Source of the DNA: a virus
Direction: 5' to 3' (one strand)
IMG/VR virus record: IMGVR_UViG_3300003797_000002
DNA length: 64,000 nt
A program made the translations under genes and the position numbers. The number at the start of each line of letters is the position of its first letter. Position 1 is the stretch's first letter. The notes below the pieces were generated by a model that searched no databases, was not told the origin of the DNA, and worked only from the letters and a program-made list of their open reading frames with translations. Of this stretch, positions 11,840-63,750 are shown one piece after another.

Positions 11840-12021
11840 TATACAGAATCAGAACGTTCGATGGTAAGTACCACATTTTTGAGACAACCACTGGGTTTAC
11901 CATCTATTCCTCAGCCGAGGAAGACAAGGTGAAATCTATCTGTCGTTTCTTAAACTCAGGAGGTGGTTTCAATGGAGCCACCCCTGCATTTTTTTGCCAC
12001 AAAGTTGACATTACCGATTGA
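11836..12021 (+). CDS. hypothetical protein
   Basis: TTG start overlapping the gp41 stop; TGA stop lies inside the next TTGACA. Confidence 0.4.
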   Translation: MIYRIRTFDGKYHIFETTTGFTIYSSAEEDKVKSICRFLNSGGGFNGATPAFFCHKVDITD

Positions 12022-12080
12022 CATTTTTTCAGAATCAGCTACATTGAGAATGTAGTTAGTGAGAAAGGTGATTCGTTATG
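12018..12080 (+). promoter_or_regulatory. early sigma70-type promoter + conserved leader cassette (copy 1)
   Basis: TTGACA 12018-23, 16 nt, TACATT 12040-45, leader GAGAATGTAGTTAGTGAGAAAGGTGATTCGTTATG; 63 bp identical to 12276-12338. Confidence 0.7.
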
Positions 12081-12269
12081 ATTAAGATTTTTGCTATTGC
12101 ATTCGCTCTGGTTGCCCTAGAACTCTTTGGGTTCAAGGAACTCGTTAGTTTTATGCATCCCATTGCGTTGATTAAGTTTTTCATCGCTATTCCGTTCGTT
12201 GCCATTGCTGCGATTACCGCTTGGTATCCCTTTGCGGTAGGCATCTGTGGCGGTCCTGAACGCTTCTGA
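12078..12269 (+). CDS. small membrane protein
   Basis: Two hydrophobic helices; cassette-driven. Confidence 0.55.
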   Translation: MIKIFAIAFALVALELFGFKELVSFMHPIALIKFFIAIPFVAIAAITAWYPFAVGICGGPERF

Positions 12270-12275
12270 TATCTC

Positions 12276-12338
12276 TTGACATTTTTTCAGAATCAGCTAC
12301 ATTGAGAATGTAGTTAGTGAGAAAGGTGATTCGTTATG
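12276..12338 (+). promoter_or_regulatory. early promoter + leader cassette (copy 2)
   Basis: Perfect 63-bp repeat of 12018-12080. Confidence 0.7.
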
Positions 12339-12572
12339 GCAAAGGCAATCGAAGCGTTCATGGGGCATGACTCCTACGGCCGTCACATTCATGCTGCTGT
12401 CCGCGAGGATGGTCAGTGGTTCTCTCGCCACTGGGGGTTCAACGGTTACGGAAACGGTTGGCTCAAGTGGAAGAAAGATCAAGAACTTCCTCGCCTCGAA
12501 GATGGTCGTGTCGAATGGGGGTTCAAGACCCTTGAGCCTATCAATCCTGAAGGCCTTCGGTTGCCAAATTAA
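12336..12572 (+). CDS. hypothetical protein
   Basis: Cassette-driven ORF; overlapping frame 12367-12615 judged a shadow. Confidence 0.5.
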   Translation: MAKAIEAFMGHDSYGRHIHAAVREDGQWFSRHWGFNGYGNGWLKWKKDQELPRLEDGRVEWGFKTLEPINPEGLRLPN

Positions 12573-12576
12573 CCAC

Positions 12577-12632
12577 TTGACATTCATCGCGAATCATGAT
12601 AGGTTCAGATCATAGACGATGGAGATGAAATG
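12577..12632 (+). promoter_or_regulatory. early promoter (copy 3, divergent leader)
   Basis: TTGACA 12577-82, 17 nt containing GCGAATC, TAGGTT 12600-05, GGAG, ATG 12630. Confidence 0.55.
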
Positions 12633-13100
12633 GAAGTTCACGTATCAGGTATCAATGCGACCAAAGCTGAGGAACTCACCGAGGCAGCAGAGTTTTTTGC
12701 GCGCCAGTTGATGGATCCTCGTATGGTTCGCAATCTATCCATTGATCTGGAGATTGAAACAAATCTAGACGCCGAAGGCGAATGTGTTGATGAGCAGGGC
12801 ACTAGGAATCCTCGGTGGTTCACGATTCGTCTCAAGCGCCAGAAGATCGACGGTATGATTAAAACTCTAGCGCACGAAATGGTCCATGTTAAGCAACACG
12901 CTAAGAATGAACTTCAACGCGGTATCGTGATCCCTACGAGGGGTGGTCTAAAGATCAGCAGCAAGTGGCAAGGCGAAATCTGGAAGCCCAAGCGGCATGA
13001 AGATAACTATTTTGATTCGCCTTGGGAGGTAGAAGCTTACGGCAAAGAAGTCGGGCTCTATCACAAGTGGTTTGCATTCATCAACGAGCGTTATAAGTAG
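12630..13100 (+). CDS. putative Zn-metallopeptidase (HExxH)
   Basis: LAHEMVHVKQH motif. Confidence 0.45.
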   Translation: MEVHVSGINATKAEELTEAAEFFARQLMDPRMVRNLSIDLEIETNLDAEGECVDEQGTRNPRWFTIRLKRQKIDGMIKTLAHEMVHVKQHAKNELQRGIVIPTRGGLKISSKWQGEIWKPKRHEDNYFDSPWEVEAYGKEVGLYHKWFAFINERYK

Positions 13101-13108
13101 AGTTATAT

Positions 13109-13185
13109 TCCCTAGGGGCCCTATCGGTAGGGGCACAAGACTGTTAATCTTGTCGTTATAGGTTCGAATCCTATCTAGGGAGCCA
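13109..13185 (+). tRNA. tRNA-Asn (GTT)
   Basis: Acceptor TCCCTAG/CTAGGGA, D stem GCCC/GGGC, anticodon stem CAAGA/TCTTG with loop CTGTTAA, T arm ATAGG-TTCGAAT-CCTAT, encoded CCA. Confidence 0.85.
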
Positions 13186-13203
13186 TTTAAAAAGGAAACT
13201 ACC

Positions 13204-13365
13204 ATGTTTCACGTATACGCATTGAACGCAGATTACGAAATGGTTGTTGAATGTCTGGTCGAAGATTATAAAGCTGCTTTAAAGCTTGCTGAAAGTCTGG
13301 ACCTAATCTATGGCAGAGATAATGTCTGTCTTGAAGTGGTGATTGATGACACTGAAAAGGTCTAA
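13204..13365 (+). CDS. small acidic hypothetical protein (53 aa)
   Basis: ATG after AAGGAA; below ORF-track cutoff. Confidence 0.45.
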   Translation: MFHVYALNADYEMVVECLVEDYKAALKLAESLDLIYGRDNVCLEVVIDDTEKV

Positions 13366-13383
13366 GTGAAATAAAGGATTGTT

Positions 13384-13782: not shown

Positions 13783-13785
13783 AAT

Positions 13786-14346
13786 ATGTACCAGACACAT
13801 CAGTATGATCCCGAAGAGTATCTACCAGAAGTCGTTCCAAACGTAGTATTCAAGACTCGTGTGCGTGACGATTCGATTGAAGGACCAAATCCTTATCGTT
13901 GGGAAAAAAGGACTTCGTTTGACTATTTTGCAAACAAGCGCGTAGTTCTATTTTCTCTTCCTGGTGCCTTTACACCTACTTGTTCGACATATCAGCTTCC
14001 TGGTTTCGAAGAAAACTATAAAGACTTCAAGGCACTAGGCATTGATGATGTATATTGCATCTCAGTCAATGATGCCTTTGTAATGAATGCTTGGGCCAAG
14101 TCACAACAGCTTCAGAAGGTCAAGGTCATTCCAGACGGTTCTGGTACATTTACCAGTGGTATGTCGATGCTAGTGAATAAGGAAAATCTTGGCTTTGGCA
14201 CACGTTCCTGGCGTTATGCTGTAGTGGTAAACAACGGCAAGATCGAAAAGTGGTTCATTGAACCTGGCTTTGGTCACAATGTCGATGATGATCCATACGG
14301 CGAGACTGCACCTGAAAACATTATGAAATGGCTCAAAACTGCTTGA
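13786..14346 (+). CDS. peroxiredoxin (Prx5-type)
   Basis: LFSLPGAFTPTCS peroxidatic Cys motif; DAFVMNAW. Confidence 0.85.
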   Translation: MYQTHQYDPEEYLPEVVPNVVFKTRVRDDSIEGPNPYRWEKRTSFDYFANKRVVLFSLPGAFTPTCSTYQLPGFEENYKDFKALGIDDVYCISVNDAFVMNAWAKSQQLQKVKVIPDGSGTFTSGMSMLVNKENLGFGTRSWRYAVVVNNGKIEKWFIEPGFGHNVDDDPYGETAPENIMKWLKTA

Positions 14347-14423
14347 CTTATTCCACGAATCAGCTATGATGGGAATATAGAGAGACAAAGCTTCTCTCTG
14401 ATACAAAATGGAGATTGATTATG
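14343..14423 (+). promoter_or_regulatory. early promoter + leader cassette (variant -35 TTGACT)
   Basis: TTGACT 14343-48 containing the Prx TGA stop, spacer ..ACGAATCAGC, TATGAT 14365-70, leader hairpin AGAGAGA(14379-85)/TCTCTCT(14393-99), GGAG, ATG 14421. Confidence 0.55.
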
Positions 14424-15426: not shown

Positions 15427-15500
15427 GCCGATATAGTATAGTGGTAATACAGTGGATTTGTAACCCTCTGACAGGAGTTCGATTCTTCTTATCGGCACCA
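15427..15500 (+). tRNA. tRNA, probably Thr (TGT)
   Basis: Acceptor GCCGATA/TATCGGC, D arm GTAT-AGTGGTA-ATAC, T arm AGGAG-TTCGATT-CTTCT, CCA encoded. Anticodon loop TTTGTAA, but its stem has two mismatches. Confidence 0.65.
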
Positions 15501-15610: not shown

Positions 15611-15687
15611 CTACCATTAGGAAAGTCTGGTAATCCGCCTGGTTTGGGGCCAGGAGATCGGGAGTTCAAATCTCTCATGGTAGACCA
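15611..15687 (+). tRNA. tRNA-Pro (TGG)
   Basis: Acceptor CTACCAT/ATGGTAG, anticodon stem CCTGG/CCAGG with loop TTTGGGG, T arm GGGAG-TTCAAAT-CTCTC, discriminator A + CCA. Confidence 0.85.
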
Positions 15688-15705: not shown

Positions 15706-15936
15706 ATGAAAATGAAAATATTCAAAGCTTTCAAAGAATCGACAACAGAGACACCAGAGAACATTCAGATTGAAGTTCTAGGTGTTGATGATAGCTGGCG
15801 TAGAGTTGAAGGCGGTGTTCCTAATCGTGCGCAGTCTATTGCTCGTGCATTAGAGTATACCAAAAAGAGATATCCTAAGAACCGAGTTCGTGCTGTTGGA
15901 CAGAAAACGGGCAGGTTCTACGATCTTTTGCCTTGA
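15706..15936 (+). CDS. hypothetical protein
   Basis: ORF only; 3' end overlapped convergently by the endonuclease gene. Confidence 0.5.
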   Translation: MKMKIFKAFKESTTETPENIQIEVLGVDDSWRRVEGGVPNRAQSIARALEYTKKRYPKNRVRAVGQKTGRFYDLLP

Positions 15937-16511
15937 TGTTTATTTTTTAATGTTTCGCTTATTTTTTTCTTAGTCTCTTCACTTGGAACTTTACCAAGTT
16001 GAGCAAGTCTCATTTTTTCTTTTGTTTCAGTTGATCTTTTTTTACCTACATTTTTCTTGTGTAGACTAGTTAAACGATCTATTTCTAGTTGAGTTTTGTT
16101 TCTGTTTTTGTGTGAATCTGAAAGTTTTTTTATAGTATCAGATGATCGTTTCTTCCCCTTGTTCGCAAGTCCCATTTTGATTCTCGATTCTTCAGTTAAC
16201 CCCGATCTTGGTCCTGTGTGATATTTACATCCCACATTTCCAGGTTTAGCGTCTTCCTGTACAAGATTTGCCCAAGATTTAGATTCGACAATATCATTTT
16301 CTTGTGAGAACGAAATAGCATATGCCGTAGCGTCTTCTTGGTTATAGAAGGTGTGTACTTCTAAAGTTATAGGTGTTATGTTATGCGATTTTATGTGTCT
16401 GATCCAATACTGACCAGATCCTTTATATCTGAAAGGATTTTTTGTTTTAGTGTAACCAAAATATTTCATATCACAATGACCACATTGCTTCACGTATAGA
16501 TAAATAACCAT
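15918..16511 (-). mobile_element. free-standing GIY-YIG-type homing endonuclease with NUMOD3-like repeats
   Basis: IYLYVKQC..KYFGYT..YKGSG N-terminal module. C-terminal repeats SEESRIKMGLANKGK / STETKEKMRLAQLGK / SEETKKKISETLK. Sits inside the tRNA cluster as segB does in T4. Confidence 0.75.
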
Positions 16512-16581
16512 AGCTGATGCTCCTGTTTAGCGTTAGAGTCTGTGGATATTAGTAGTATCGTGACAGACAATATTACTTATA
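16512..16581 (-). promoter_or_regulatory. conserved homing-endonuclease leader
   Basis: Minus-strand TATAAGTA at 16574-81, hairpin GTCTGT(16538-43)/ACAGAC(16563-68), TCTAACGCT, GGAGCATCAGCTATG. Confidence 0.55.
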
Positions 16582-16594
16582 TAAAACACCCTTT

Positions 16595-16668
16595 GCCTCA
16601 TTAGCATAGAATCAATGCATCTGGCTTCCACCCAGAGGAAAACGGGGAGGTACCGTTATGAGGCTCCA
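16595..16668 (+). tRNA. non-canonical tRNA-Gly(TCC)-like cloverleaf
   Basis: All four stems are perfect: acceptor GCCTCAT/ATGAGGC, D GCAT/ATGC, anticodon TCTGG/CCAGA (loop CTTCCAC), T AACGG/CCGTT. U8, A14, U33, A37 and T+CCA are present. D loop AGAATCA lacks GG, and T loop is GGAGGTA instead of TTCRANY. Confidence 0.6.
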
Positions 16669-16994: not shown

Positions 16995-17669
16995 ATGATG
17001 CAGCGGTTGCTATCTATCCCTAGGATGTTAGCTTCCGCTGCATTTTCTTTTCTAGCAAAGCGGAAGCTGCCTCCATCGTTACCTGCAAATCAAGTCTGGC
17101 CTTACGGTCAGGCTATTGTCGTGCCTGGTACCACAGTGCTTTGTAACTCGTTCTATCTCGTTCTTTATGATGAAAAGAATATGAGAACGATTCTATCTGC
17201 TGAAGTGACACAGCCACCACATGACCACGTGGAAAGAGACGACGCATTCTGCTCTGATCCTCGCCTGAAACGGTCACCAACACCAGATGACTATACAGAC
17301 AGTGGATATGATCGCGGGCATCTAACACCCGCTGCTGACGCTGGAAACGAAGTCCAGATGCGCGACACATTTCTAATGACCAACATGACACCACAACTAC
17401 CAGATGTAAACAGGATTATCTGGAAAGAACTGGAAGCGATGGTGAGAGGGATGGAGACGCAATACGTGGTGACTGGTGCAATCTATACTGATCCATCTAC
17501 TTGTATTGGAGAACGTAGGATTCCCGTTCCATCGGCGTATTACAAAGTTGTCTATCTCAAAGATCGCTCTATCAAAGTTTATATGGCTGACAACGTTGAA
17601 GGATCTGCTCTGATAGAAAAATCTTTATCAGAGTTAGAATCTTTGGTGGGATACACATTTCCCTCTTGA
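16995..17669 (+). CDS. DNA/RNA non-specific endonuclease (Serratia NucA family), probably exported
   Basis: GYDRGHLTPAADA..NMTPQ active-site pattern; hydrophobic N-terminus. Confidence 0.8.
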   Translation: MMQRLLSIPRMLASAAFSFLAKRKLPPSLPANQVWPYGQAIVVPGTTVLCNSFYLVLYDEKNMRTILSAEVTQPPHDHVERDDAFCSDPRLKRSPTPDDYTDSGYDRGHLTPAADAGNEVQMRDTFLMTNMTPQLPDVNRIIWKELEAMVRGMETQYVVTGAIYTDPSTCIGERRIPVPSAYYKVVYLKDRSIKVYMADNVEGSALIEKSLSELESLVGYTFPS

Positions 17670-17732
17670 CATTATTCCCGAGTCGTGTATTATCAGTAAT
17701 GTAGTCAGTGAGATATAAGGTGATTCGTTATG
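17666..17732 (+). promoter_or_regulatory. early promoter + leader cassette
   Basis: TTGACA 17666-71 (contains the nuclease TGA stop), 16 nt, TATTAT 17688-93, AATGTAGTCAGTGAGA..AAGGTGATTCGTTATG. Confidence 0.7.
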
Positions 17733-17909
17733 TTTAGTTTATCTGCTTCTATCTCTGTGATTCGTAGCTACGGTATCAATATCGACGGTGTGAGCGATAT
17801 TCTCAATGTTTTGGATGATCTAGGTCAAGTTCGTAAAGATGGTTACATCGACCAAAAGAATCTTGATCGCCAGATTCAAAAATATCGCAAAGCACAAAAG
17901 GCTGCTTGA
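17730..17909 (+). CDS. small hypothetical protein (59 aa, below ORF-track cutoff)
   Basis: MFSLSASISVIRSYGINIDGV..; cassette-driven; TGA stop inside the next TTGACA. Confidence 0.6.
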   Translation: MFSLSASISVIRSYGINIDGVSDILNVLDDLGQVRKDGYIDQKNLDRQIQKYRKAQKAA

Positions 17910-17971
17910 CATATAACTCGAATCTGTTATGGTAAGAATGTAGTCAGTGAGTTTGTGGAGCAATCAATATG
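17906..17971 (+). promoter_or_regulatory. early promoter + leader cassette
   Basis: TTGACA 17906-11, 16 nt with CGAATC, TATGGT 17928-33, AGAATGTAGTCAGTGAG, GGAG, ATG 17969. Confidence 0.7.
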
Positions 17972-18163
17972 AATCTTAAGCAACTCTTTGCCCCCATCGT
18001 GATTCGTTTTCAGTCATCGGATGATCTTGAAGCGGCTCTCTTTTTCCTCTCCGAATGCAACCGTGACAAGCTGAGTGATCGCCTTGTCAAACAGGTTGAT
18101 CGAATGGAAAAGTTGATCGCAAAGGAACTGATTCGTCGTGGCGTCAAGATTTGGGAGTTTTGA
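17969..18163 (+). CDS. hypothetical protein
   Basis: Cassette-driven; ends ..WEF* in junction GGAGTTTTGATTATG. Confidence 0.55.
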   Translation: MNLKQLFAPIVIRFQSSDDLEAALFFLSECNRDKLSDRLVKQVDRMEKLIAKELIRRGVKIWEF

Positions 18164-18165
18164 TT

Positions 18166-18402
18166 ATGTTTTTCTGCAAAAATCGTGTGCATCAGTATAT
18201 TGTGACACTGGAAGTAAACGGTCGTCATCCCTATCTTGTCGATCATGATCTGGATTATTTTGAAGGCAAGAAAGATGTCCAAGTTAAAGTGACCGCAACT
18301 TCTTGGAAAAAAGCAGATCAAGCAGCGCTTGATGTTGGTCCTTGCATAAAAGCTTGGTCCTGGCGTGTTAAGTCTATTGAAAAGGTATTTAAGGAGTTTT
18401 GA
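18166..18402 (+). CDS. hypothetical protein
   Basis: ATG 18166 in the conserved junction; ends ..KEF*. Confidence 0.55.
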   Translation: MFFCKNRVHQYIVTLEVNGRHPYLVDHDLDYFEGKKDVQVKVTATSWKKADQAALDVGPCIKAWSWRVKSIEKVFKEF

Positions 18403-18404
18403 TT

Positions 18405-18617
18405 ATGTTTACTGCTGTTGTGACTATTAGTACGGTGCCTGATCATGATGGAGACACGTATTTTCTGTTTGATGGAGTTGTGCATGATGAAGAAGAATAT
18501 GCTGATCTTCTGTTTGAACTTGAACAGCGCACTCATTACAAAATAGCAGGGCATAAAGGAAAGATTACTGTCCTCTCTGAAATCACTCGTCGTACCTCTA
18601 ATGTTTTGGAGTTTTGA
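18405..18617 (+). CDS. hypothetical protein
   Basis: ATG 18405 in the conserved junction; ends ..LEF*. Confidence 0.55.
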   Translation: MFTAVVTISTVPDHDGDTYFLFDGVVHDEEEYADLLFELEQRTHYKIAGHKGKITVLSEITRRTSNVLEF

Positions 18618-26102: not shown

Positions 26103-26268
26103 GAAACGCTATTTTCTGATTTTTATAACAGAAGAATCGGGTCGTGAAACCGATATCGACTATATCGGGCTGAACGCAAAGTCATTCAAAGACGCAAAAC
26201 GAATCGCTAGATGTGTCTATGGTGAGCATGGACCAAATCATATAGTTTACAAAAACGTGGAGATTTAA
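26080..26268 (+). CDS. hypothetical protein
   Basis: GTG start; ORF only. Confidence 0.3.
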   Translation: MDKSPKFKKRYFLIFITEESGRETDIDYIGLNAKSFKDAKRIARCVYGEHGPNHIVYKNVEI

Positions 26269-26269
26269 T

Positions 26270-26680
26270 ATGAAAGTTGGTGTAACGGGAACTCGCTCAG
26301 GAATGACCGAATCTCAATATGATGCCGTTAAGTTTTGGTTAAAAAGTCTAGATGCTAAAGAACTTCATCACGGCGATTGTGTTGGTGTAGACGTTGAAGT
26401 AGCAATCTTGGCCTCTAGTCTTGGTTACTATATTGTTAATCATCCGCCTATTAAAGATGATCTTCGTGCTTATCATCATTCGCACCAGCATCGCAATCCA
26501 CTGTCTTATTTTGCTCGAAACCGTAACATCGTTGATGAGTGTGATATTCTCATGGTGGTACCACATCAGATGGAGTGGCAACCTAATGGCGGCACATGGT
26601 ACACACATGATTATGCTGTCAAAAAACAAAAATATCTTATCATTTTTTATCCTGACGGATCAACTTCCACACGAATCTAG
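26270..26680 (+). CDS. SLOG/DUF2493-like protein
   Basis: VGVTGTRSG..HHGDCVGVDVEVA pattern. Confidence 0.4.
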   Translation: MKVGVTGTRSGMTESQYDAVKFWLKSLDAKELHHGDCVGVDVEVAILASSLGYYIVNHPPIKDDLRAYHHSHQHRNPLSYFARNRNIVDECDILMVVPHQMEWQPNGGTWYTHDYAVKKQKYLIIFYPDGSTSTRI

Positions 26681-26681: not shown

Positions 26682-26746
26682 TTGACATTTTATCGCGAAT
26701 CGTCTATTGTCAGAAAGTAGACAGAGAGAGAAAGTGATTCGTCATG
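26682..26746 (+). promoter_or_regulatory. early promoter + leader cassette
   Basis: TTGACA 26682-87, 17 nt with GCGAATCG, TATTGT 26705-10, AAAGTAGACAGAGAGAGAAAGTGATTCGTCATG. Confidence 0.7.
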
Positions 26747-27697: not shown

Positions 27698-27844
27698 ATG
27701 ACTGTTACTGAAATCGTTAATGAACTTCTACTAGAAATGGAACTTCTAGAAATGCAAGAATACACGCTAGCCGCTGAAACCATTCGGAAGTTTCTTCGCA
27801 TCGCCACTCCGATTCAGGTCAAGGCTCTCGAAGATTTCGTTTGA
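27698..27844 (+). CDS. small hypothetical protein (48 aa)
   Basis: ATG 27698 after AGGAAA; TGA stop inside the next TTGACA. Confidence 0.45.
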   Translation: MTVTEIVNELLLEMELLEMQEYTLAAETIRKFLRIATPIQVKALEDFV

Positions 27845-27903
27845 CATTATTCACGAATCGTGTATGGTGAGAATGTAGCAAAGAGAAAAGGTGATTCGTT
27901 ATG
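27841..27903 (+). promoter_or_regulatory. early promoter + leader cassette (near-consensus)
   Basis: TTGACA 27841-46, TTATTCACGAATCGTG, TATGGT 27863-68, GAGAATGTAGCAAAGAGAAAAGGTGATTCGTTATG. Confidence 0.75.
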
Positions 27904-28478: not shown

Positions 28479-28535
28479 TTGACATTAATCGCGAATCGTG
28501 CTAGGTATACATAATAGAAAACGGAGATTGTCATG
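28479..28535 (+). promoter_or_regulatory. early promoter (divergent leader)
   Basis: TTGACA 28479-84, 17 nt with GCGAATCGTG, TAGGTA 28502-07, GGAG, ATG 28533. Confidence 0.6.
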
Positions 28536-30799: not shown

Positions 30800-30861
30800 T
30801 TGACATTTATCTCCCTTTTGATATGATGAGTTATCAGACAGCGAAAGGAAGATTTTTTATG
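30800..30861 (+). promoter_or_regulatory. early promoter (divergent leader)
   Basis: TTGACA 30800-05, 16 nt, TATGAT 30822-27, AAGGAAG, ATG 30859. Confidence 0.6.
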
Positions 30862-31221: not shown

Positions 31222-31384
31222 GATTGGTGATAGGGTGTATGCCACGCGAGATATTGGACTTGTTAACGAAAATCAAGTAGGAACAGTGGTTGATGTTCTG
31301 GAAGATTATCTTCCCTTTCCTTATATCGTAGATTTTGGTGCGGAAGATATGCCATGCAAAGAAAAGGAGATTGCACTTGATTAG
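31214..31384 (+). CDS. small protein with MFKIGDRV SH3-like module
   Basis: ATG 31214; paralogue of 30859. Confidence 0.5.
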   Translation: MFKIGDRVYATRDIGLVNENQVGTVVDVLEDYLPFPYIVDFGAEDMPCKEKEIALD

Positions 31385-32444
31385 GTTTCCCTCTATTGAA
31401 CAGTTCCGTTCCACGATTCATCATGTCAAGAACCATACGCGGTATGCTGGCAAGGATGCTGATGGCAATGCTGTGTATGATCATTCTCGCCCGCTTCCTA
31501 CGCTGAAGTTTCGTGGTACTGTCAAGCTGCATGGTACCAACGCGGGTATCGTGTATGACGTTGCCACCGACACTATTAGCTATCAGTCGCGTGAACGTGA
31601 ACTGTCGCTGACTTCTGACAATGCTGGCTTCATGCTTTGGGCTAAGAGTCACGAATCAATCTTTATTCAGTATTTTGAAGCATGTTTCCACAACGGTCTT
31701 ATGGAACAGTTTGCTCCGCGCAAGACCAATAAAATGCCAACAAAACTAGTTTTGTTTGGTGAATGGTGCGGTGGTAATATCCAAAAGGGTGTTGCTCTTA
31801 CTGGTCTGGACAAGATGTTTGTTGTGTTTGCATATAAAGAAATGTATGCAGATGATGATTCTGTCTGGGCAAACATGCCAAGTTTCATTGAAGTGAGTCA
31901 ACGGGCTGTCCCTAATATTTACTGGATCAATGAGTTTCCTACCTACGAAATCGACATTGACTTCAACTTTCCTGAAATCGCTCAGAACAAGATGATCGAA
32001 ATCACGGAAGCTGTTGAAGCCGAATGCCCTGTCGGTAAGCACTTTGGTGTTAGCGGCATTGGCGAAGGTGTTGTGTGGACTTGCGTCACTCCTGGTTATA
32101 ACGACTCGGGCACTTGGTTTAAAGTCAAGGGCGAAAAGCATTCTTCTTCGAAGGTCAAGACTCTTGCTGCTGTTGATGTTGAAGCAGTAGAGAACATGAA
32201 GGCTTTCATCGAATCAGTTGTCACTGAATCGCGTCTTGAACAGGGTCTAGACAATCTGGTTCGCGAACAACTGCTGCCCTTTGATATGAAGTCTCTCGGC
32301 GATTTTATCCGTTGGGTCTACAATGATGTCGTCAAGGAAGAAGCTGATACCATCGTTGCGAATCAGATTGATACCAAGAAGCTGGGATCTGCTATTGCGA
32401 ATGTAGCACGCCCATGGTATATCCAGCGGTATAATGCCTCTTGA
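31377..32444 (+). CDS. rnlB: RNA ligase 2-like (Rnl2 family)
   Basis: Motif I KLHGTN (T4 Rnl2 KIHGTN), FGEWCGGNIQKGV (motif III), GEGVVW (IV), WFKVKGEKH (V). TTG 31377 follows AAGGAG. Confidence 0.8.
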   Translation: MIRFPSIEQFRSTIHHVKNHTRYAGKDADGNAVYDHSRPLPTLKFRGTVKLHGTNAGIVYDVATDTISYQSRERELSLTSDNAGFMLWAKSHESIFIQYFEACFHNGLMEQFAPRKTNKMPTKLVLFGEWCGGNIQKGVALTGLDKMFVVFAYKEMYADDDSVWANMPSFIEVSQRAVPNIYWINEFPTYEIDIDFNFPEIAQNKMIEITEAVEAECPVGKHFGVSGIGEGVVWTCVTPGYNDSGTWFKVKGEKHSSSKVKTLAAVDVEAVENMKAFIESVVTESRLEQGLDNLVREQLLPFDMKSLGDFIRWVYNDVVKEEADTIVANQIDTKKLGSAIANVARPWYIQRYNAS

Positions 32445-32500
32445 CATTTAATACGAATCGTGTATGGTGAGAATGTAGCAGAGTGAAAGATTGAACAATG
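32441..32500 (+). promoter_or_regulatory. early promoter + leader cassette
   Basis: TTGACA 32441-46 (contains the Rnl2 TGA), ..ACGAATCGTG, TATGGT 32463-68, GAGAATGTAGCAGAGTGAAAG, ATG 32498. Confidence 0.7.
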
Positions 32501-33751
32501 AACTATGAGTTTCCTCACATCACCAACATCGCTGATGTGCTGCCTGCTATTGAAGGTCGTTACGAGTTCGTTGTGGCTGAGAAGGAAGGCTACACGGTCA
32601 TCAACTACAACGTGATGATGTCCGATACGTTTCCTGATGTGCCAGTTGATATGAAGTGGCAGGAGCCTCTCAATCGTATTGCTTTTGGTGAGTACGATCC
32701 CACCGCAGCAATCCGTCGTGAATGTCGTGGTATCATCTTTGATACTGAAACTGGTTATATCATTCGTCGCCCGTTCCATAAGTTCTTCAATGTGAACGAG
32801 CGTGAGGAGACGCAGGATCATGTCATTGATCTGTCGCGCCCTCATGCTATCCTTGAGAAGCTGGATGGTTCCATGATCGCTCCGTTCATTGTGAATGGTC
32901 AAATGATCTGGGGCACGAAGATGGGTGCTACCGACGTGGCAAAGCCTGTTGAGGAGTTCGTCAAGAACAAACCTCAGTATGAGAAGTTTGCTACTTCCTG
33001 CATTGCCAACGGTGTAACTCCTATCTTTGAATGGTGTTCGCGTAAGCAGCGCATTGTTCTGGACTACAAGGAAGATCAACTGATCCTCACCGCTCTTCGC
33101 GATATGCATACTGGCGAATATATCAAACTGTTCGGTGATGGTCGTATCAACCGATTGCATGTTGAAGATTGGGATATCCCTGTCGTCCGTGCATTTGAGT
33201 TCACTAACTATGGTGAACAGAATGATATGAAGGCTTTCCTTGAATACGTCCACGATCTGGAAGACCTTGAAGGGTTCGTGGTTCGTTTTGATGATGGTCA
33301 TATGTTGAAGTTGAAGTGCCATTGGTATCTCCAGATTCACAAGGCGAAGGAAGCTATCCTGCAAGATCGCAACATCGTTGAACTGATTCTGGAAGAAAAG
33401 CTGGATGACATCAAGGCTCATCTGCCTGCCGAAGATCGTGATCGGCTGACTCAGTTTGAGAGCAATATTCATTTTGATATTGCCCGTCGCGTAAGGCTGA
33501 TTGGTATGAAGCTGGAATATCTCCGTGAGCGTGGTATTGATCGTAAAACGTTTGCAATCGATCCGAAGCACAGTGTTGGTGTTGATGCTTTCATTCGTCC
33601 TATTATTTTCAAGAACTTTGATAACGACATTATCAGTGGTCTGAAGATTGGCGAAGACGTTCGCAAAACGATCCGTAATAACCTTGGTCGCACGGCAAAG
33701 TATGAAGCGATCCGTGATGCTTGGTTTCCGGGAGTGAAGTACAATGACTGA
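32498..33751 (+). CDS. rnlA: RNA ligase 1-like (T4 RnlA family)
   Basis: ECRGIIFD, HKFFNVNE, motif I EKLDGSM, FEWCSRKQRIVLDY, EGFVVRFDDGHMLKLKCHWY, all collinear with T4 Rnl1. Confidence 0.9.
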   Translation: MNYEFPHITNIADVLPAIEGRYEFVVAEKEGYTVINYNVMMSDTFPDVPVDMKWQEPLNRIAFGEYDPTAAIRRECRGIIFDTETGYIIRRPFHKFFNVNEREETQDHVIDLSRPHAILEKLDGSMIAPFIVNGQMIWGTKMGATDVAKPVEEFVKNKPQYEKFATSCIANGVTPIFEWCSRKQRIVLDYKEDQLILTALRDMHTGEYIKLFGDGRINRLHVEDWDIPVVRAFEFTNYGEQNDMKAFLEYVHDLEDLEGFVVRFDDGHMLKLKCHWYLQIHKAKEAILQDRNIVELILEEKLDDIKAHLPAEDRDRLTQFESNIHFDIARRVRLIGMKLEYLRERGIDRKTFAIDPKHSVGVDAFIRPIIFKNFDNDIISGLKIGEDVRKTIRNNLGRTAKYEAIRDAWFPGVKYND

Positions 33752-33887
33752 TCGTGAACTTTTGGAAATGGCGCTTGATGACCTTGATTGGGCAAAGGCC
33801 ATGCTTGAGTTAGACGGCACCGATTCGCACGAATGCCTTGATGATGTGATTGCTGCCATCAAGCAGCGGTTGGAAAATAACGATTGA
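33744..33887 (+). CDS. small acidic hypothetical protein (47 aa)
   Basis: ATGACTGA overlap with the rnlA stop; TGA stop inside the next TTGACA. Confidence 0.45.
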   Translation: MTDRELLEMALDDLDWAKAMLELDGTDSHECLDDVIAAIKQRLENND

Positions 33888-33946
33888 CATTTTTTCATAA
33901 TCAGCTATATTGAAAATGTAGCAGATAGATGGAGTGATTCGAGATG
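33884..33946 (+). promoter_or_regulatory. early promoter + leader cassette
   Basis: TTGACA 33884-89, 16 nt, TATATT 33906-11, GAAAATGTAGCAGATAGATGGAGTGATTCGAGATG. Confidence 0.7.
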
Positions 33947-34640: not shown

Positions 34641-34649
34641 GTATAAAAT

Positions 34650-42731: not shown

Positions 42732-43168
42732 CAACACTGATAGATTCTTTGAAAGTAGCATTAGCAGATGCTTTTGCGTTTTATTTAAAGTCACACAACT
42801 ATCACTTTAATGTAATAGGAAACAACTTCTATGAATATCACACATTTCTAGAAAAGATATACACTCAAGTATTCGAAGAGTTTGATTCTATCGGTGAAAA
42901 GATCAGAACACTAAACGAATACACACCAGCATCCTTTACTCGGTTTATAGAGTTAACTAATATTGATGATGCACTTACTGTTCCTTCTAGCCAAAGAATG
43001 TTTGAAACACTGCACGAAGATAATCTAATACTTACACAATCTCTAGAAACTGCATATCATGCGGCTGAACTTGCTGGTGAAATAGGAATCAGCAACTTCC
43101 TTCAAGATTTGGTTGACAAACACAATAAACTATCTTGGATGTTAAAGGCAACCATATCTACGATCTGA
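42728..43168 (+). CDS. dps: Dps/ferritin-like DNA-protection protein
   Basis: LADAFAFYLKSHNYHFNVIGNNFYEYHTFLEKIY..EFDSIGEKIR typical Dps ferroxidase-site pattern. Confidence 0.75.
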   Translation: MTTLIDSLKVALADAFAFYLKSHNYHFNVIGNNFYEYHTFLEKIYTQVFEEFDSIGEKIRTLNEYTPASFTRFIELTNIDDALTVPSSQRMFETLHEDNLILTQSLETAYHAAELAGEIGISNFLQDLVDKHNKLSWMLKATISTI

Positions 43169-43820
43169 TCTTCATTTTACACTTATCGCCATGATGTTTT
43201 GCAAAGTTACCAGGATCGAGATAGTTTAAACAATGAGGACATTCTTTTTTCTTCAGAAACGGATGAGTTCCATCTTTGAATCTTTTACGGTTCATTTCAC
43301 CACCCAATAAATGGTGTGTTCCATTTTCTACTCTTTTTTTATTAGATTGTCTCTGTATTTCACCACCTAGAAATGGATGTGTGCCTTCTTCTACTCTTTT
43401 GTTGTTTATATCGCTTCCTAGAAAGTGGTGAGTTCCTTCTTCTATACGTTTTCTTTGAACTTCACCACCTAAAAAGTTGTGTGTTCCATTTTGAATCTTT
43501 TCTTTATTCCATCTTTTATGATTTTCTTTATCCAAAAAAGGATGTGTACCATCTTCAAGCCTTTTTGTTTGAACAAGCTTGGCCAAGTTAGACTTTTCTT
43601 CTGCACTAATGGACATTCTCTGTGAGATACGTAAACAGGCTGCCCAATCGTTTTGAGAATAATGTATGTTATAGTGTTCTTGTATCGTTATGCAAACTAA
43701 GTTGGAAATATCGTTGTTCTTACGATTGCCGTCTATATGATGAATCTCGTATGATCTACCATTCTCATCTTTAGGAATGGGACCGAAATGACGAGTCCAG
43801 ATTCTGCGATAAATATTCAT
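43158..43820 (-). mobile_element. free-standing HNH homing endonuclease with six tandem GTHxFL repeats
   Basis: YEIHHIDGNRKNNDISNL..H HNH core. Repeats DGTHPFL, NGTHNFLGG, EGTHHFLGS, EGTHPFLGG, NGTHHLLGG, DGTHPFL. 3' end overlaps the dps stop. Confidence 0.8.
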
Positions 43821-51063: not shown

Positions 51064-51111
51064 TTGACATTGGTCTACGGTTGGCGTATTATACAACTGT
51101 AGATTCAGATG
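51064..51111 (+). promoter_or_regulatory. early promoter
   Basis: TTGACA 51064-69, 17 nt, TATTAT 51087-92, ..CTGTAGATTCAG, ATG 51109. Confidence 0.6.
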
Positions 51112-52146
51112 TATAGGATGAATATGAGTGACTTGTACCTAGATGTTATGTATTGTAATCTTCTATCCAACAGGCTAGAACGATTCAAAGTAAAGAAGTC
51201 ATCGCCATACGTATCTAACTTTAGATGCCCATTCTGTGGTGATTCGCAGAAGAACAAATACAAAGCCCGTGCATATCTGTTTCAGCACAAGGGCAAGACA
51301 TACTTCAAGTGTTACAACTGTGGTCTTGCCCATGGCTTCTCCAACTTTCTAAAGCAAATCGATACTACTCTACACCAAGAGTATGTCGTAGAGAAGTTCA
51401 AAGACAGCGCGAAGATGCGCCCTAAAGAACCACCAAAACAAGATATCGCTAGGTTTACACCACCAGCTTTTCTAAAGTCTGGTTCACCTCTACGTAAGTT
51501 GAAGAAGATATCTCAACTGACATACGATCATCCTGCTAAGAAGTATATACTCTCTAGGAAGATCGAAAACAAACATCATGCAAAGTTGTTCTACTGCACC
51601 AAGTTTGCGGAGTGGACTAACAGCATGATTCCAGATAAGCTGGATACGAAACAAGATGAGCCTAGACTGATCATTCCGTTTCTTGATGAAGACGGAAACA
51701 TGTTTGGCTATCAGGGTAGAAGTTTTAATCCAAAGTCAAATCTACGCTATATAACTATCATGCTGGATGACAGGCCAAAAATCTTTGGTCTTGACACTGT
51801 TGATAAAAACAAAAGGGTATACTGCTTTGAAGGACCACTCGACTCACTTTTTGTGGCAAATAGTCTTGCTATGGGCGGTGCTGATGTTACTCTGGATCAA
51901 TCCTTTGTGGACGTTGTTTACGTTCTTGATAATGAGCCTCGCAATAAAGAAATCGTAAAACGTCTTGACAAAATGATCGATAAGGGTTATAGTGTAATGA
52001 TATGGGACGATACGTTCAAGGGCAAAGATATCAATGACATGATTCTGAATGGAGCAGATGTTGAACATATCACAATCGTCCTAGAGAAGCGAACATTTAG
52101 CGGTCTAGAGGCTCGTGTTGAACTTATGAAATGGAAGAAAGTATGA
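51109..52146 (+). CDS. 61: DNA primase (T4 gp61 family)
   Basis: Zn finger FRCPFCGDS..CYNC, EPRLIIPF, YQGR, YITI, EGPLDSLF, VLDNEPRN collinear with T4 gp61. Start may be ATG 51124. Confidence 0.88.
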   Translation: MYRMNMSDLYLDVMYCNLLSNRLERFKVKKSSPYVSNFRCPFCGDSQKNKYKARAYLFQHKGKTYFKCYNCGLAHGFSNFLKQIDTTLHQEYVVEKFKDSAKMRPKEPPKQDIARFTPPAFLKSGSPLRKLKKISQLTYDHPAKKYILSRKIENKHHAKLFYCTKFAEWTNSMIPDKLDTKQDEPRLIIPFLDEDGNMFGYQGRSFNPKSNLRYITIMLDDRPKIFGLDTVDKNKRVYCFEGPLDSLFVANSLAMGGADVTLDQSFVDVVYVLDNEPRNKEIVKRLDKMIDKGYSVMIWDDTFKGKDINDMILNGADVEHITIVLEKRTFSGLEARVELMKWKKV

Positions 52147-60536: not shown

Positions 60537-60956
60537 ATGGATTATGAAAATCCATGGATCTACGATGGGGAACCCTTTACTGATGCACAGGCTGATGGTC
60601 ATTTTGCATTTGTTTACTTGATAACAAACAAAGTTACTGGTCGAAAATATCTTGGCAAAAAACTCTTTACAATGGCTGGCTATAAGACTATAAAGGGTAA
60701 GAAGAAGAAGATTCGCAAGCCTAGCGATTGGAAGACCTATTATGGTTCTTCTCCAAGTCTGAAAGCAGATGTTGAAGACTTAGGCAAAGAAAACTTTTCT
60801 CGCCAGATACTAAAAGTTGTTGACAATAGATCATCCGCCAGTTATTATGAAGCGAAAGAGATGTTTGCTGTGGATGCGATTCTCTCAGATGAGTATTATA
60901 ATGATTGGTGTACTATAAAGATTTCATCGATGCATGTGAAAGCAATCTATAAATGA
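60537..60956 (+). CDS. GIY-YIG domain protein (short, no DNA-binding extension)
   Basis: FAFVYLITNKVTGRKYLGKK..YYGSS..R.IL..YEAKE. Confidence 0.55.
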   Translation: MDYENPWIYDGEPFTDAQADGHFAFVYLITNKVTGRKYLGKKLFTMAGYKTIKGKKKKIRKPSDWKTYYGSSPSLKADVEDLGKENFSRQILKVVDNRSSASYYEAKEMFAVDAILSDEYYNDWCTIKISSMHVKAIYK

Positions 60957-61031: not shown

Positions 61032-61505
61032 ATGAAGAATCTTATGTTTGCCCTCGCGGCTCTTACCGCTGTTGCTGCTACTCCTGCAATGGCAGACAGC
61101 TTTGTCGGCCCTCGTGTAACTGGCGTTGTCGGCTATCAGGACATCACTGCAATCCCATCAAACCGTTCATTCACTTATGGTGTTGAAGCTGGTTATGACA
61201 GCAAGCTTGTTGGTCCTGTTACCGTAGGCGTTGAAGCTGGTCTAGACAACGTATTTGACCGCACCGATGTTAACGTTGGTGGTCGTCTTGGCTATGAAGT
61301 AACTCCACATACTCTAGTGTATGCTGGTCTAGGTTATGACAACCTCCGTGATCTAGAAGCACACAATCTCCAGGGTCTTCGCGCTACCGCAGGTCTTGAC
61401 GTTAACGTCATTGGTCATGTTTCGGTTGGTGCTCAGTACACCCACACCGATCTTGGCGCAGTCAAGAACAATGGTGCGGCTGGTACGGTGACCTTCCGCT
61501 TCTGA
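61032..61505 (+). CDS. outer-membrane beta-barrel protein (OmpA-like/OMP_b-brl porin family) with signal peptide
   Basis: Signal MKNLMFALAALTAVAATPAMA. Alternating amphipathic strands with YxxGxGY patterns. C-terminal ..GTVTFRF. Visibly more GC-rich than its neighbours. Confidence 0.75.
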   Translation: MKNLMFALAALTAVAATPAMADSFVGPRVTGVVGYQDITAIPSNRSFTYGVEAGYDSKLVGPVTVGVEAGLDNVFDRTDVNVGGRLGYEVTPHTLVYAGLGYDNLRDLEAHNLQGLRATAGLDVNVIGHVSVGAQYTHTDLGAVKNNGAAGTVTFRF

Positions 61506-61533
61506 TAAATAGAAGTACCACACCCCAGTGAGA

Positions 61534-61569
61534 ATGCCCTCGGAGTTTCGGCTTCGGGGGCATTTTTTG
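61534..61569 (+). terminator. rho-independent terminator
   Basis: AATGCCCTCG/CGGGGGCATT stem (one G.U pair) followed by TTTTTT. Confidence 0.75.
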
Positions 61570-61572
61570 TGG

Positions 61573-61636
61573 TTGACATTTTTGGCGAATCGTGTACATT
61601 GAGAAAGTAGTCAATGAGAAAAGGTGATTCGCAATG
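61573..61636 (+). promoter_or_regulatory. early promoter + leader cassette
   Basis: TTGACA 61573-78, TTTTTGGCGAATCGTG, TACATT 61595-600, GAGAAAGTAGTCAATGAGAAAAGGTGATTCGCAATG. Confidence 0.75.
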
Positions 61637-61918: not shown

Positions 61919-61929
61919 GGAGATTTGTT

Positions 61930-62130
61930 ATGATCACGAAGCTTTCAGGTGGTGCATTCGAACTTCAAACAGGTCGCCCATGGACTTGGGGTATCTCGCC
62001 ATTTCGTGAAGGTGAAGCACTGAAACTGAAACGAGAAGAGTCTGGTCGCTGGTTCTTTGAAATCAACGAGGTGCAATATTCTGCCAAGCAGATCGCGCCA
62101 CACCTCAAAGATATCCAAATGCACTCTTGA
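61930..62130 (+). CDS. hypothetical protein
   Basis: AAGGAG SD; TGA stop inside the next TTGACA. Confidence 0.55.
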   Translation: MITKLSGGAFELQTGRPWTWGISPFREGEALKLKREESGRWFFEINEVQYSAKQIAPHLKDIQMHS

Positions 62131-62190
62131 CATTTATCCAGAATCGTCTATGGTAAGAATGTAGTCATTGAGAAAGGTTGATTCGCTATG
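62127..62190 (+). promoter_or_regulatory. early promoter + leader cassette
   Basis: TTGACA 62127-32, 16 nt, TATGGT 62149-54, AAGAATGTAGTCATTGAGAAAGGTTGATTCGCTATG. Confidence 0.75.
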
Positions 62191-62610
62191 GGACGTTCAG
62201 TTGATTATGCCAGTGGCGCCGGCGCTGTGGTCTATGTTGATGTTTCGTACATTCAGGACTCCTGGGAATGGGATGACTTTGTAGATGATGTGCAGAGCAT
62301 CGTCAAGGATGCCTACAAATCGTTTGACAACGAAGACAAGTGGATTGGGCGTGAACTTCGTGCCATTCTGGAAAACAGGTTCGCTCAAGTTGTAGTTTCG
62401 GAATACTGTGGGCTGGCCAGCATTTCTCTGGTCGCCAAAGAGTACGATTGCTACTACAGCGATGAGATTTCTTTGCAGAATCTTGCCCATGCTTGGGTCA
62501 ATCGGATTGCACCCAACTTTGAAAAGGTGTTGAACAAGGCTTTCAACTGCTATGCCAAGATCGGCAGTTTCAGCAACGGCGAAGGTGTTTACGAAAAAAT
62601 CGCTGCTTGA
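62188..62610 (+). CDS. hypothetical protein
   Basis: Cassette-driven ORF; the 156-aa antisense ORF is judged a shadow. Confidence 0.55.
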   Translation: MGRSVDYASGAGAVVYVDVSYIQDSWEWDDFVDDVQSIVKDAYKSFDNEDKWIGRELRAILENRFAQVVVSEYCGLASISLVAKEYDCYYSDEISLQNLAHAWVNRIAPNFEKVLNKAFNCYAKIGSFSNGEGVYEKIAA

Positions 62611-62668
62611 CATTATTCCTGATTCTGTTATGATGAAAAAGTAGTCAGTGAGAGAGATTCGAATCATG
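62607..62668 (+). promoter_or_regulatory. early promoter + leader cassette
   Basis: TTGACA 62607-12, 16 nt, TATGAT 62629-34, GAAAAAGTAGTCAGTGAGAGAGATTCGAATCATG. Confidence 0.7.
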
Positions 62669-62833
62669 AAAATGTTTGTTGCTCGTAATCACAATGGGAC
62701 TTTCATTGCTAAAGGTGTTGACCTTGGAAATCTGATGGAAGAAGTCATGATCTATGAAGAAGTGACTGGCAATCGGTGCACCGTCGGCCGAGAAGAGTTT
62801 GAAGTTGAACTCAAGCGCAACATTTATCGCTGA
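62666..62833 (+). CDS. small hypothetical protein
   Basis: ATG 62666 at the cassette end. Confidence 0.5.
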   Translation: MKMFVARNHNGTFIAKGVDLGNLMEEVMIYEEVTGNRCTVGREEFEVELKRNIYR

Positions 62834-62844
62834 GGAGAAGTTAA

Positions 62845-63051
62845 ATGAAAATCCTAAAAGTAACCGTAACCGACAAGAACGCAGTTTATGTGAATGACAC
62901 TCGTATCACTGGACGCGGATCAAAGTGGGGGATTCATTACACTGTTGACGAGTTTCGATGCGCTGCAAAAAATGTCCGAAATAGGTTGATTCAACGTGGT
63001 TATGGGAATATTCGGCTAGATGCAGATTATGCCGCTGAATTCGGAATTTAA
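62845..63051 (+). CDS. hypothetical protein
   Basis: GGAGAAG SD. Confidence 0.5.
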   Translation: MKILKVTVTDKNAVYVNDTRITGRGSKWGIHYTVDEFRCAAKNVRNRLIQRGYGNIRLDADYAAEFGI

Positions 63052-63062
63052 GGAGAGTTAAA

Positions 63063-63233
63063 ATGTTGTCTCGTATCCTGTTCGCACTAGGTATTGCACT
63101 GTTCTGTGGAATTGGTTTTTATATTCCTGACTATGTTAAGGGAACACTTGACCGAGCCGACATCGCTGTCCCGATGATGGCATATATTGCTTCATACATC
63201 ACGTTGTCTATCAGGGATCGCCATGACTACTAA
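63063..63233 (+). CDS. small membrane protein (56 aa)
   Basis: GGAGAG SD; MLSRILFALGIALFCGIGFY.. Confidence 0.4.
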   Translation: MLSRILFALGIALFCGIGFYIPDYVKGTLDRADIAVPMMAYIASYITLSIRDRHDY

Positions 63234-63283
63234 ATCCTATCTTTACATTCTGGCAACTTGTTTCATTCTGATGGCTGCTTAAT

Positions 63284-63682
63284 ATGACAATGCATCTCCT
63301 AGGTCCTGCTTATACCACAAACTCAACTAAGAAACGCAAGCCGCAACTAAACACGGCGAAGTATGCTCAAGATTGGGTAGACTATAACAAGCAGATGAAG
63401 CGGCTTGGATCAAAAACCAAGACGTTCCAAGAGTATGTTGCATATCGACAAGGCAATGCCGCATACAAAACAAAGACCGTTAAGACTGGTATGGAAGCTT
63501 CCACATACGTTCGCAATGCGCCCAAGTATGAGACTGGTGATGGCATCGGTGTGACGTTTGCCAAAGCGCCTAACACATATACGGGCGACAAGCTGCTCGG
63601 CATCGCCACGATGCATAAGAGCAATCTGGTACCTGTCTTCAGTCAGGAAGACGCGGAAGATATTTCTAAAATGAGGCGATGA
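63284..63682 (+). CDS. hypothetical basic protein
   Basis: ORF only. Confidence 0.5.
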   Translation: MTMHLLGPAYTTNSTKKRKPQLNTAKYAQDWVDYNKQMKRLGSKTKTFQEYVAYRQGNAAYKTKTVKTGMEASTYVRNAPKYETGDGIGVTFAKAPNTYTGDKLLGIATMHKSNLVPVFSQEDAEDISKMRR

Positions 63683-63686
63683 CCGC

Positions 63687-63750
63687 TTGACATTTATCCC
63701 GAATCGTGTATGGTAAGAATATAGACAGAGAGAAGGGTTGATTCGTTATG
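63687..63750 (+). promoter_or_regulatory. early promoter + leader cassette
   Basis: TTGACA 63687-92, TTTATCCCGAATCGTG, TATGGT 63709-14, AAGAATATAGACAGAGAGAAGGGTTGATTCGTTATG. Confidence 0.75.

Follow-up and report, generated by a model that had tools for sequence, protein, structure and literature searches.

A promoter-leader cassette that probably doubles as a recombination joint in an uncultured T4-like phage

The IMG/VR virus record IMGVR_UViG_3300003797_000002 holds a 64,000-nucleotide stretch of DNA (the window) that, by its gene content, is a new uncultured T4-like myovirus. An initial annotation listed eighteen starts in this stretch at which a sigma70-type early promoter and a conserved leader stand together, mostly ahead of small open reading frames (ORFs). 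The repeat raises a question: what is a promoter for that is conserved well beyond what sigma70 needs, and are its copies places where genes are exchanged? We find that the repeat is real, and we consider it likely that it is a standardised early-expression cassette that doubles as a recombination joint in this T4-like phage.

A repeated promoter-leader unit in the variable regions

Performing pattern scans of the window, we find 26 matches to TTGACA-N15-19-TAnnnT, against 5.9 ± 2.5 in shuffled sequences. The strict promoter pattern recovers 15 of the 18 listed starts, on the plus strand in every case, and fails at 14343 (-35 of TTGACT), 28479 (-10 of TAGGTA) and 34426 (-10 of TATAAG). The leader 16-mer AAGGTGATTCGYTATG, with up to three mismatches, has 11 matches in the window against 1.0 expected. 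The unit is, as the annotation had it, a promoter joined to a conserved leader.

We trained a profile hidden Markov model (HMM) on the 12 best copies, whose own recovery at E ≤ 5e-14 is by construction. The full copies lie at 12018-12080, 12276-12338, 17666-17732, 17906-17971, 26682-26746, 27841-27903, 32441-32500, 33884-33946, 61573-61636, 62127-62190, 62607-62668 and 63687-63750. The HMM also picked out three partial copies, at 14343-14423 (E 1.5e-6), 12577-12632 (8e-4) and 28479-28535 (9e-4), which have the -35, the CGAATC spacer and the TAG box in common with the full set and differ in their leaders. At 14343, the spacer reads CGAATCA and an 18-nt hairpin-forming insert splits the leader; at 12577, a CGAATCA spacer and another, short leader head a 156-amino-acid (aa) ORF; at 28479, a CGAATCG spacer is followed by an atypical -10 and a short leader.

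By the HMM, the three remaining sites were indistinguishable from ordinary sigma70-like sites. The site at 30800-30861 (E 0.16) has a sigma70-like promoter, a Shine-Dalgarno sequence and an ATG without the spacer motif or the conserved leader. The site at 34426-34481 (0.52) is without the cassette leader, and the site at 51064-51111 (no hit), sigma70-like with 11/12 matches, stands before the primase gene without cassette spacer or leader. The true tally is 12 full copies, 3 partial copies and 3 sites that are promoter-like only; of the eighteen claimed copies, 12 to 15 are thus real.

Aligning the units gives one order of elements over ~65 nt. An A-rich tract and CCGC stand upstream of a perfect -35 (TTGACATT), followed by a spacer of 16-17 nt in which CGAATC(G/A) keeps a constant position, and by the TAnnnT -10. 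The leader, ~30 nt long, purine-rich and written GTAG-TCAGTGAGA, runs from nAGAAWGTAG through (T/A)CAGWGAGA and a short A/G run to a final GTGATTCG-NN-ATG; in the full copies it carries a GTAG/CAGTGAGA block. Every copy has a Shine-Dalgarno sequence and an ATG at its 3′ end, and the ATG opens an ORF. Some copies depart from the common form: the spacer reads CGAGTCG at 17666, TAATC at 33884 and TGATTCT at 62607 (with leader GATTCGAATC), and the Shine-Dalgarno region is divergent at 17906, which keeps the full promoter and GTAGTCAGTGAG, and at 32441, which keeps the full promoter and the GTAG box. Mean pairwise identity among the 12 full copies is 72% (range 58-100%), while the 64-nt flanks on each side reach 26%. 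Over 63 nt, no difference separates the copy at 12018 from that at 12276.

All units lie on the plus strand; the minus strand has no copy. The cassettes are confined to the variable stretches 12-34.5 kb and 61.5-64 kb, and the replication block (1-12,000) and the 35,000-61,500 block are free of listed units except the promoter-like site at 51064. A further degenerate copy considered at ~26185-26272 was unconvincing. An Rfam scan of the window returned three transfer RNAs (tRNAs) and no other RNA family. None of the small cassette-headed ORFs tested (10 of 10) has a Pfam family. The larger genes named behind listed units were confirmed as Rnl1 (32498-33751, headed by the cassette at 32441), an AAA_33 (Pnk-like) kinase (33944-34429, headed by the cassette at 33884) and the primase (51109-52146). 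The small unknown ORFs, Rnl1 and the kinase are cassette-headed as described; the primase is not.

We compared 172 loci of relatives, obtained by two pattern scans of IMG/VR and sorted by BLAST against the window into three classes of 92-99%, ~77-85% and 65-72% identity. Scanning related phages with a model of the units, as the initial annotation had proposed, gave 217 cassette instances on these IMG/VR contigs, 97 of them distinct. The consensus is near-identical across the three classes: A-rich tract, cGC, TTGACATT, CGAATC, TA...T, A.AA.GTAG, CAG.GAG and GTGATTCG..ATG. Variable positions change freely across relatives and the motif blocks are kept. Because the blocks persist where gene identity has fallen to 65-72% at the nucleotide level, this pattern points to blocks selected as signals, not merely recent duplicates. 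The ORF behind the cassette at 63687 has 63-67% amino-acid identity in the divergent group and is cassette-headed there too. 

In contig L146 (minus strand), the cassette equivalent to that at 12577 holds GTGCTAGGTTCAGAAC twice with CTAGCACGC between them. This internal tandem duplication suggests slippage or unequal exchange inside the cassette.

Gene exchange at the cassettes

Chaining the BLAST segments of the 92-99% identical contigs (L numbers) against the window, we observed 25 distinct structural differences. Some of them leave a chimeric cassette. In six contigs from different samples (L059, L139, L148, L169, L171 and L132), a single cassette stands for the copies at 61573 and 62607, with its 5′ half from the former and its 3′ half from the latter. 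The switch occurs inside the shared AAAGTAGTCA, and the ~1.0 kb between the copies is absent, including the cassette at 62127 and the 140-aa ORFan that it heads. Four contigs (L060, L094, L006 and L050) are without ~1.16 kb in the same manner and carry the 5′ half of the cassette at 26682 joined to the 3′ half of that at 27841.

Other differences exchange or replace whole genes. The 63-aa ORFan at 12078-12269 and the 78-aa ORFan at 12336-12572, headed by the cassettes at 12018 and 12276, are reversed in five contigs (L164, L134, L020, L145 and L138), and all three junctions of this two-gene swap are intra-cassette. The cassette at 12276 is a junction of the swap and also of a deletion: L146 and L167 are without the 12336 gene, which lies between two cassettes. 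The partial copy at 12577 is a recombination junction as well. The cassettes at 17666 and 17906 form the left and right edges of a gene replacement, with one 59-aa ORFan in the window and two unrelated ORFs in L134, L138 and L155, and the cassette at 33884 lies at one end of a replacement in L006. At 63687, the window has one cassette ahead of a conserved ORF (MAYMSQEKK...), while L059 and similar contigs have a cassette, a 99-aa ORF, a second cassette and then the conserved gene. Finally, L128 and L150 have a homolog of the gene behind the cassette at 61573 immediately upstream of Rnl1; the two places are 29 kb apart in the window.

Gene-content breakpoints coincide with cassette positions, as expected of the recombinogenic regulatory module that the initial annotation had suggested. 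Fourteen of 50 breakpoints fall inside cassettes, which make up 2.4% of the assessable sequence (binomial P ~1e-11). Under a gene-junction null, a breakpoint is found at 9 or 10 of the 12 cassette-headed starts and at 14 of the 74 remaining ones (Fisher P 2e-4 to 3e-5). The crossovers have exact identity of ~10 nt, with a median shared stretch of 11 nt, and each chimeric junction is seen again in 4 to 6 contigs of different samples.

Could the copies resemble each other through independent selection for a strong promoter and ribosome site, with breakpoints meeting them by gene-boundary insertions and deletions (indels) or by assembler mis-joins at repeats? Indels in phage variable regions do tend towards gene boundaries, and several of the events outside cassettes delete genes exactly, at short stretches of microhomology. 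However, the chimeras join the 5′ half of one copy to the 3′ half of a copy 1 kb away, and breakpoints are far commoner at cassette-headed starts than at other gene starts. Junction identity of ~10 nt is too short for a k-mer assembly error; this and the repeat occurrence across samples make an assembly artefact unlikely. Moreover, the cassettes at 12018 and 12276, identical in the window, differ from one another in relatives, and exchange between copies is therefore indicated. We regard this explanation as scarcely plausible.

We favour the cassette that is both an expression unit and a joint. Host sigma70 RNA polymerase would start ~7 nt past the -10 at once on infection, and each small early gene would then have its own transcript with a common 5′ untranslated region (UTR) and a strong ribosome site. 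Comparison of the relatives shows that the recombination system of the phage uses the same-orientation copies, a dozen or more in the variable regions, as short homology patches, and that an exchange between two copies deletes, inserts, swaps or replaces the intervening genes. The product is a chimeric but intact cassette, because of which every recombination product would stay expressible.

Several points weigh against this proposal. The -10 boxes (TATGGT, TACATT) are weak by E. coli standards, and we infer the start sites and the early timing from sequence alone. The relatives were fetched by cassette search, so that the comparison covers cassette-rich neighbourhoods only, and the structural differences are unpolarised between gain and loss. 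Recombination alone leaves the conservation of the spacer and leader blocks across divergent lineages unexplained. In addition, 16 of the 25 structural differences are without cassette involvement; among them are homing endonuclease genes present in some contigs and absent from others, and events at a 17-nt ribosome-site repeat or at microhomology. Cassettes are thus a major driver of variation, one among several.

The 17-nt repeat (GGAGTTTTGATTATGTT) is a promoterless 'half cassette' with copies at 18154-18170 and 18393-18409 (plus strand), the left and right ends of a 222-bp deletion in L134, L138, L155, L162 and L160. Because this repeat, a Shine-Dalgarno sequence and ATG without a promoter, flanks the deletion, conserved ribosome sites alone can also act as recombination joints. 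In L006 and L060, a deletion of 1.37 kb has its junction in GTATGGT, a microhomology of 7 nt and the -10 of the cassette at 32441.

The window also encodes four free-standing homing-endonuclease-type genes: GIY-YIG at 1632-2180 (minus strand), NUMOD3-type at 15918-16511 (minus), HNH at 43158-43820 (minus) and SegE-like GIY-YIG at 60537-60956 (plus). The first is polymorphic (L142 is without 1631-2258), as is the second (L134, L138, L145 and L020 are without 15912-16652). Among near-identical contigs, these genes are thus a second source of variation, independent of the cassettes. Copies of the 16.3-kb endonuclease gene, 69% identical, adjoin gp43 in L074 and nrdA in L169. L074, ~95% identical overall, also has a 279-nt insertion within the gp43 coding region relative to window 7804-7843, and the end of its uvsX is replaced relative to 10026-10377. 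These differences may represent an intein, an intron or a divergent allele.

What the conserved spacer and leader blocks may do

Why are the spacer and the leader conserved? An internal inverted repeat is visible in the unit: CGAATC of the spacer and GATTCG of the leader are reverse complements, as are CTAYAT and ATGTAG around the -10. The repeat could form a hairpin that acts as a terminator or attenuator, or that hides the ribosome site in read-through transcripts, as in T4 lysozyme, soc and I-TevI. The copies at 12018, 33884 and 61573 fold decently (z-scores -1.6 to -2.5). Folding 11 copies, we find no common structure, however, and z-scores range from -2.5 to +1.5. Neither helix shows a compensatory change among 67-71 distinct cassettes. 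The arms instead vary in an uncoupled manner (T/T in 10 cases, A/C in 9, A/G in 12, and four GATTC spacers facing an unchanged GATTC), and the complementarity of the -10/GTAG pairs does not exceed that of column shuffles. A terminator-like hairpin lies upstream of only 2 of the 18 copies: 36 nt ahead of 12018, at 11962-11982, and ahead of 61573, where a GC-rich hairpin and a T-run span ~61534-61568. We therefore rejected the hairpin, attenuator or cruciform reading, which is without a common fold or covariation and is very improbable.

A different reading starts from the sites themselves. Both extra blocks are GANTC sites, with A, T or G at the middle base while G, A, T and C are kept; the spacer CGAATCG is CGATTCG on the bottom strand, and the leader block reads TGATTCG. 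In Caulobacter, the GcrA consensus is 'TGATTCG or, more broadly, YGAKTCK' (Haakonsen et al. 2015, PMC4647560; Wu et al. 2023, PMC9976885), and GcrA-activated sigma70 promoters have sites 'narrowly centered around -20' and at +2 or +5 to +30 (PMC4647560, PMC9976885). The cassettes might thus be early promoters at which GcrA, a sigma70 cofactor of the host, recognises methylated GANTC sites, as it does in Caulobacter and other Alphaproteobacteria; with its help, RNA polymerase would open these promoters, whose -10 boxes are weak. This reading would add to the cassette model.

The motif matches agree with it. A YGAKTCK match lies 13-14 nt from the -35 start in 14 of the 18 units, and exact TGATTCG lies 51-55 nt from it in 10 of the 18. 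Across the window, YGAKTCK occurs 110 times against 84 ± 9 expected, and the entire excess is within cassettes. With the start site at its usual distance, the two sites would lie at ~-18 and ~+20; counting the first base of the -10 hexamer as -12 puts the spacer GAATC at -20 to -16 (centre -18) and the leader site at ~+18 to +24. For GcrA/CcrM-dependent promoters, the centre is expected at -20 ± 1 or -30 ± 2 in the spacer, or the site between +5 and +30. GAATC is on the top strand of the spacer, as in PcsM, the GcrA-activated promoter of the published cryo-electron microscopy structure (PMC9976885). The weak -10 boxes would suit an activator of open-complex formation.

Other observations speak against GcrA. 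The spacer site is ~2 bp nearer the -10 than in PcsM, and many divergent relatives have CGAATCT, one base off YGAKTCK. GANTC is neither enriched nor depleted genome-wide (272 observed, 235-304 expected). Among the ~70 window ORFs scanned against Pfam or PHROGs, there is no GcrA/CcrM-like or methyltransferase gene, and tblastn with an approximate GcrA N-terminal query, a weak test, found nothing in the window. The Caulobacter T4-like phage Cr30 is without such promoters; its early intergenic regions have a different repeated motif, TTTACTT...TA.AGTT, and almost no GANTC. No clue to the host came from homologs of an outer-membrane protein encoded in the window, from isolate phages or from bacterial genomes. 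The cassette pattern gave one chance match, in a Lactobacillus relative, among 185,579 bacterial genomes, and a SleB-like hydrolase matched phages of many hosts at <40% identity, indicating no host. Pairing with the 3′ end of 16S rRNA also accounts for TGATTC.

With respect to GcrA/CcrM promoters of Caulobacter crescentus, the likeness is that extended GANTC motifs occupy the -35/-10 spacer and, by the predicted start, the first 30 transcribed bases. The difference is that most GcrA promoters have one box and the phage units have two putative ones. The fit is striking but circumstantial, and we consider GcrA dependence rather unlikely. If it were true, early transcription of the phage would require GANTC sites that had been methylated in the previous host, the host would belong to the Alphaproteobacteria, and one 65-nt unit would serve at once as epigenetic promoter, standard leader and recombination joint. 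It offers a specific question, namely phage use of the host's methylation-reading GcrA system.

The 3′ part of the leader also allows a translational reading, which is compatible with the cassette as promoter and joint. Its block AAGGUGAUUCGUUAUG may be an extended Shine-Dalgarno sequence, a RegA operator or both; the element concerned, leader GAUUCGUU, would give strong coordinated translation and then a coordinated shut-off of the cassette genes. The stretch GGUGAUUC can pair with the 16S 3′ end GGAUCACC over 8 bp, including one G-U. Genes of the window that have no cassette rely on ordinary AAGGA/GGAG sites, with spacers that vary, and are without the leader block. A full-length homolog of regA, which encodes a translational repressor, lies at 3674-4069 on the plus strand (PF01818, E 8e-46, full-length match). 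T4 RegA sites are unstructured and overlap the AUG or lie just 5′ of it, with the consensus AAAAUUGUUAUGUAA from in vitro selection (SELEX; Uzan and Miller 2010, PMC3014915). The leader stretch AUUCGUUAUG equals AUUGUUAUG with one inserted C and resembles the T4 RegA SELEX consensus AAUUGUUAUG; the regA product is a candidate trans-factor for it.

Against this, the start regions of gp44, gp45 and regA in the window, which are RegA targets in T4, are unlike the leader, and the spacer motif and the GTAG/CAGTGAGA block are left unexplained. Compared with the RegA operators of T4 and RB69, regA is present here and a conserved unstructured stretch 5′ of and including the AUG resembles the SELEX consensus; T4 operators, however, are more A/U-rich and are not a repeated near-identical cassette, and the operator proposed here is putative. 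We hold the translational reading to be possible, and tentative.

Genomic context and relation to known phage early promoters

The T4-like assignment follows from the gene content. The gp45 clamp, gp44, gp62, regA and gp43 lie at 979-8893 in T4 order, and the further T4-type genes encode UvsX, a DnaB-type (gp41-type) helicase, RNase H, PhoH, ThyX, primase, NrdA and NrdB. RNA ligase and kinase genes are represented by Rnl2, Rnl1 and the Pnk-like kinase. Performing tblastn with gp43, we obtained T4-like phages only, at identities of ≤51%, the best being cyanomyoviruses. Megablast of 10 kb against 50,697 phage records gave no nucleotide-level match to the window, and blastn of the consensus cassette against the same records found no match in cultured phages.

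An RNA-repair-type cluster at 31335-35267 (plus strand) comprises an Rnl2-family ligase, Rnl1, the AAA_33 (Pnk-like) kinase and a metallophosphoesterase; cassettes head two of the four. Antisense to Rnl1 lies a 511-codon ORF (32363-33898, minus strand) with no Pfam hit, and more long antisense ORFs lie opposite Rnl2 and the kinase. The ORF at 32363-33898 is probably a compositional artefact, because the plus strand there is G+T-rich (GC skew +0.13). The variable region also carries tRNA genes for Asn-GTT (13109-13185), Thr-TGT (15427-15500) and Pro-TGG (15611-15687), all on the plus strand. Just ahead of the terminator and the cassette at 61573 is an outer-membrane beta-barrel gene (PF13505) at 61032-61505 (plus strand); we found 17 homologs of it, all metagenomic, and none in isolate phages. 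Caulobacter phage Cr30 (L174, 1-50000) and the window have common neighbourhoods: primase/thymidylate synthase/nrdA/nrdB, PhoH/exonuclease, and RNA ligases/phosphoesterase.

How does the cassette relate to known early promoters? T4 early promoters are 'uber' UP/-35/TGn/-10 promoters with additional regions of consensus (Hinton 2010, PMC2988021). The units likewise combine very good sigma70 elements with conserved extra positions, which in T4 go with immediate takeover of the host RNA polymerase. In contrast to T4, they have no TGn extended -10 and a weaker -10, and what they conserve in addition is a spacer with GANTC and a leader that is transcribed.

The closer parallel is the promoter-early stem-loop (PeSL), to which the initial annotation had compared the units. 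PeSLs consist of an A/T-rich tract, a strong sigma70-like promoter, a transcription-terminating stem-loop, a Shine-Dalgarno sequence and an ATG (PMC2839356, PMC4122927). They are dense in hyperplastic regions and are linked to indels, chimeras and mini-circles, with crossovers between -10 and ATG (PMC2839356, PMC4122927). They have been described in RB49/phi1, T4/PST and KVP40/nt-1 (Arbiol et al. 2010, PMC2839356; Comeau et al. 2014, PMC4122927), and few were reported in cyanophage S-PM2 (PMC4503421).

The likeness is extensive. Here too, a T4-type genome repeats a composite of A/T-rich tract, sigma70-type early promoter, Shine-Dalgarno sequence and start codon, concentrated in hyperplastic regions ahead of ORFans. 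Here too, close relatives differ by indels and replacements, and the chimeric units have their crossovers between -10 and ATG. The differences are that the units have no regular stem-loop or terminator and no GGGG...CCCC-type motif, that they have a conserved spacer and a ~30-nt leader, two GANTC sites among them, and that the lineage is uncultured, with gp43 nearest cyanomyoviruses. The comparison therefore stands for the shuffling behaviour and not for the stem-loop. In the way it works the unit resembles a PeSL, but we class it as a variant, a promoter-leader cassette; for want of a consistent stem-loop and of covariation, it falls short of a PeSL in the strict sense.

The evidence for PeSL-type shuffling has so far been based on three pairs of cultured phages. 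To this, our analysis adds natural population data, that is, dozens of near-identical metagenomic genomes with alternative gene arrangements and with junctions base-resolved within cassettes: in near-identical IMG/VR contigs, deletions, a swap, a replacement and an insertion lie at cassettes. These junctions give direct evidence that, beyond the enterobacterial and Vibrio phages too, gene flux in the variable regions of T4-like genomes is organised by short regulatory repeats. This takes a known mechanism into a new, uncultured lineage whose cassettes are built differently, and the junction evidence at population level is unusually clear. The strongly conserved spacer and 5′ UTR make the unit a compact candidate for coordinated on/off switching of early phage genes, and in metagenomes the motif can serve as a sensitive means of finding this phage lineage and its early genes.

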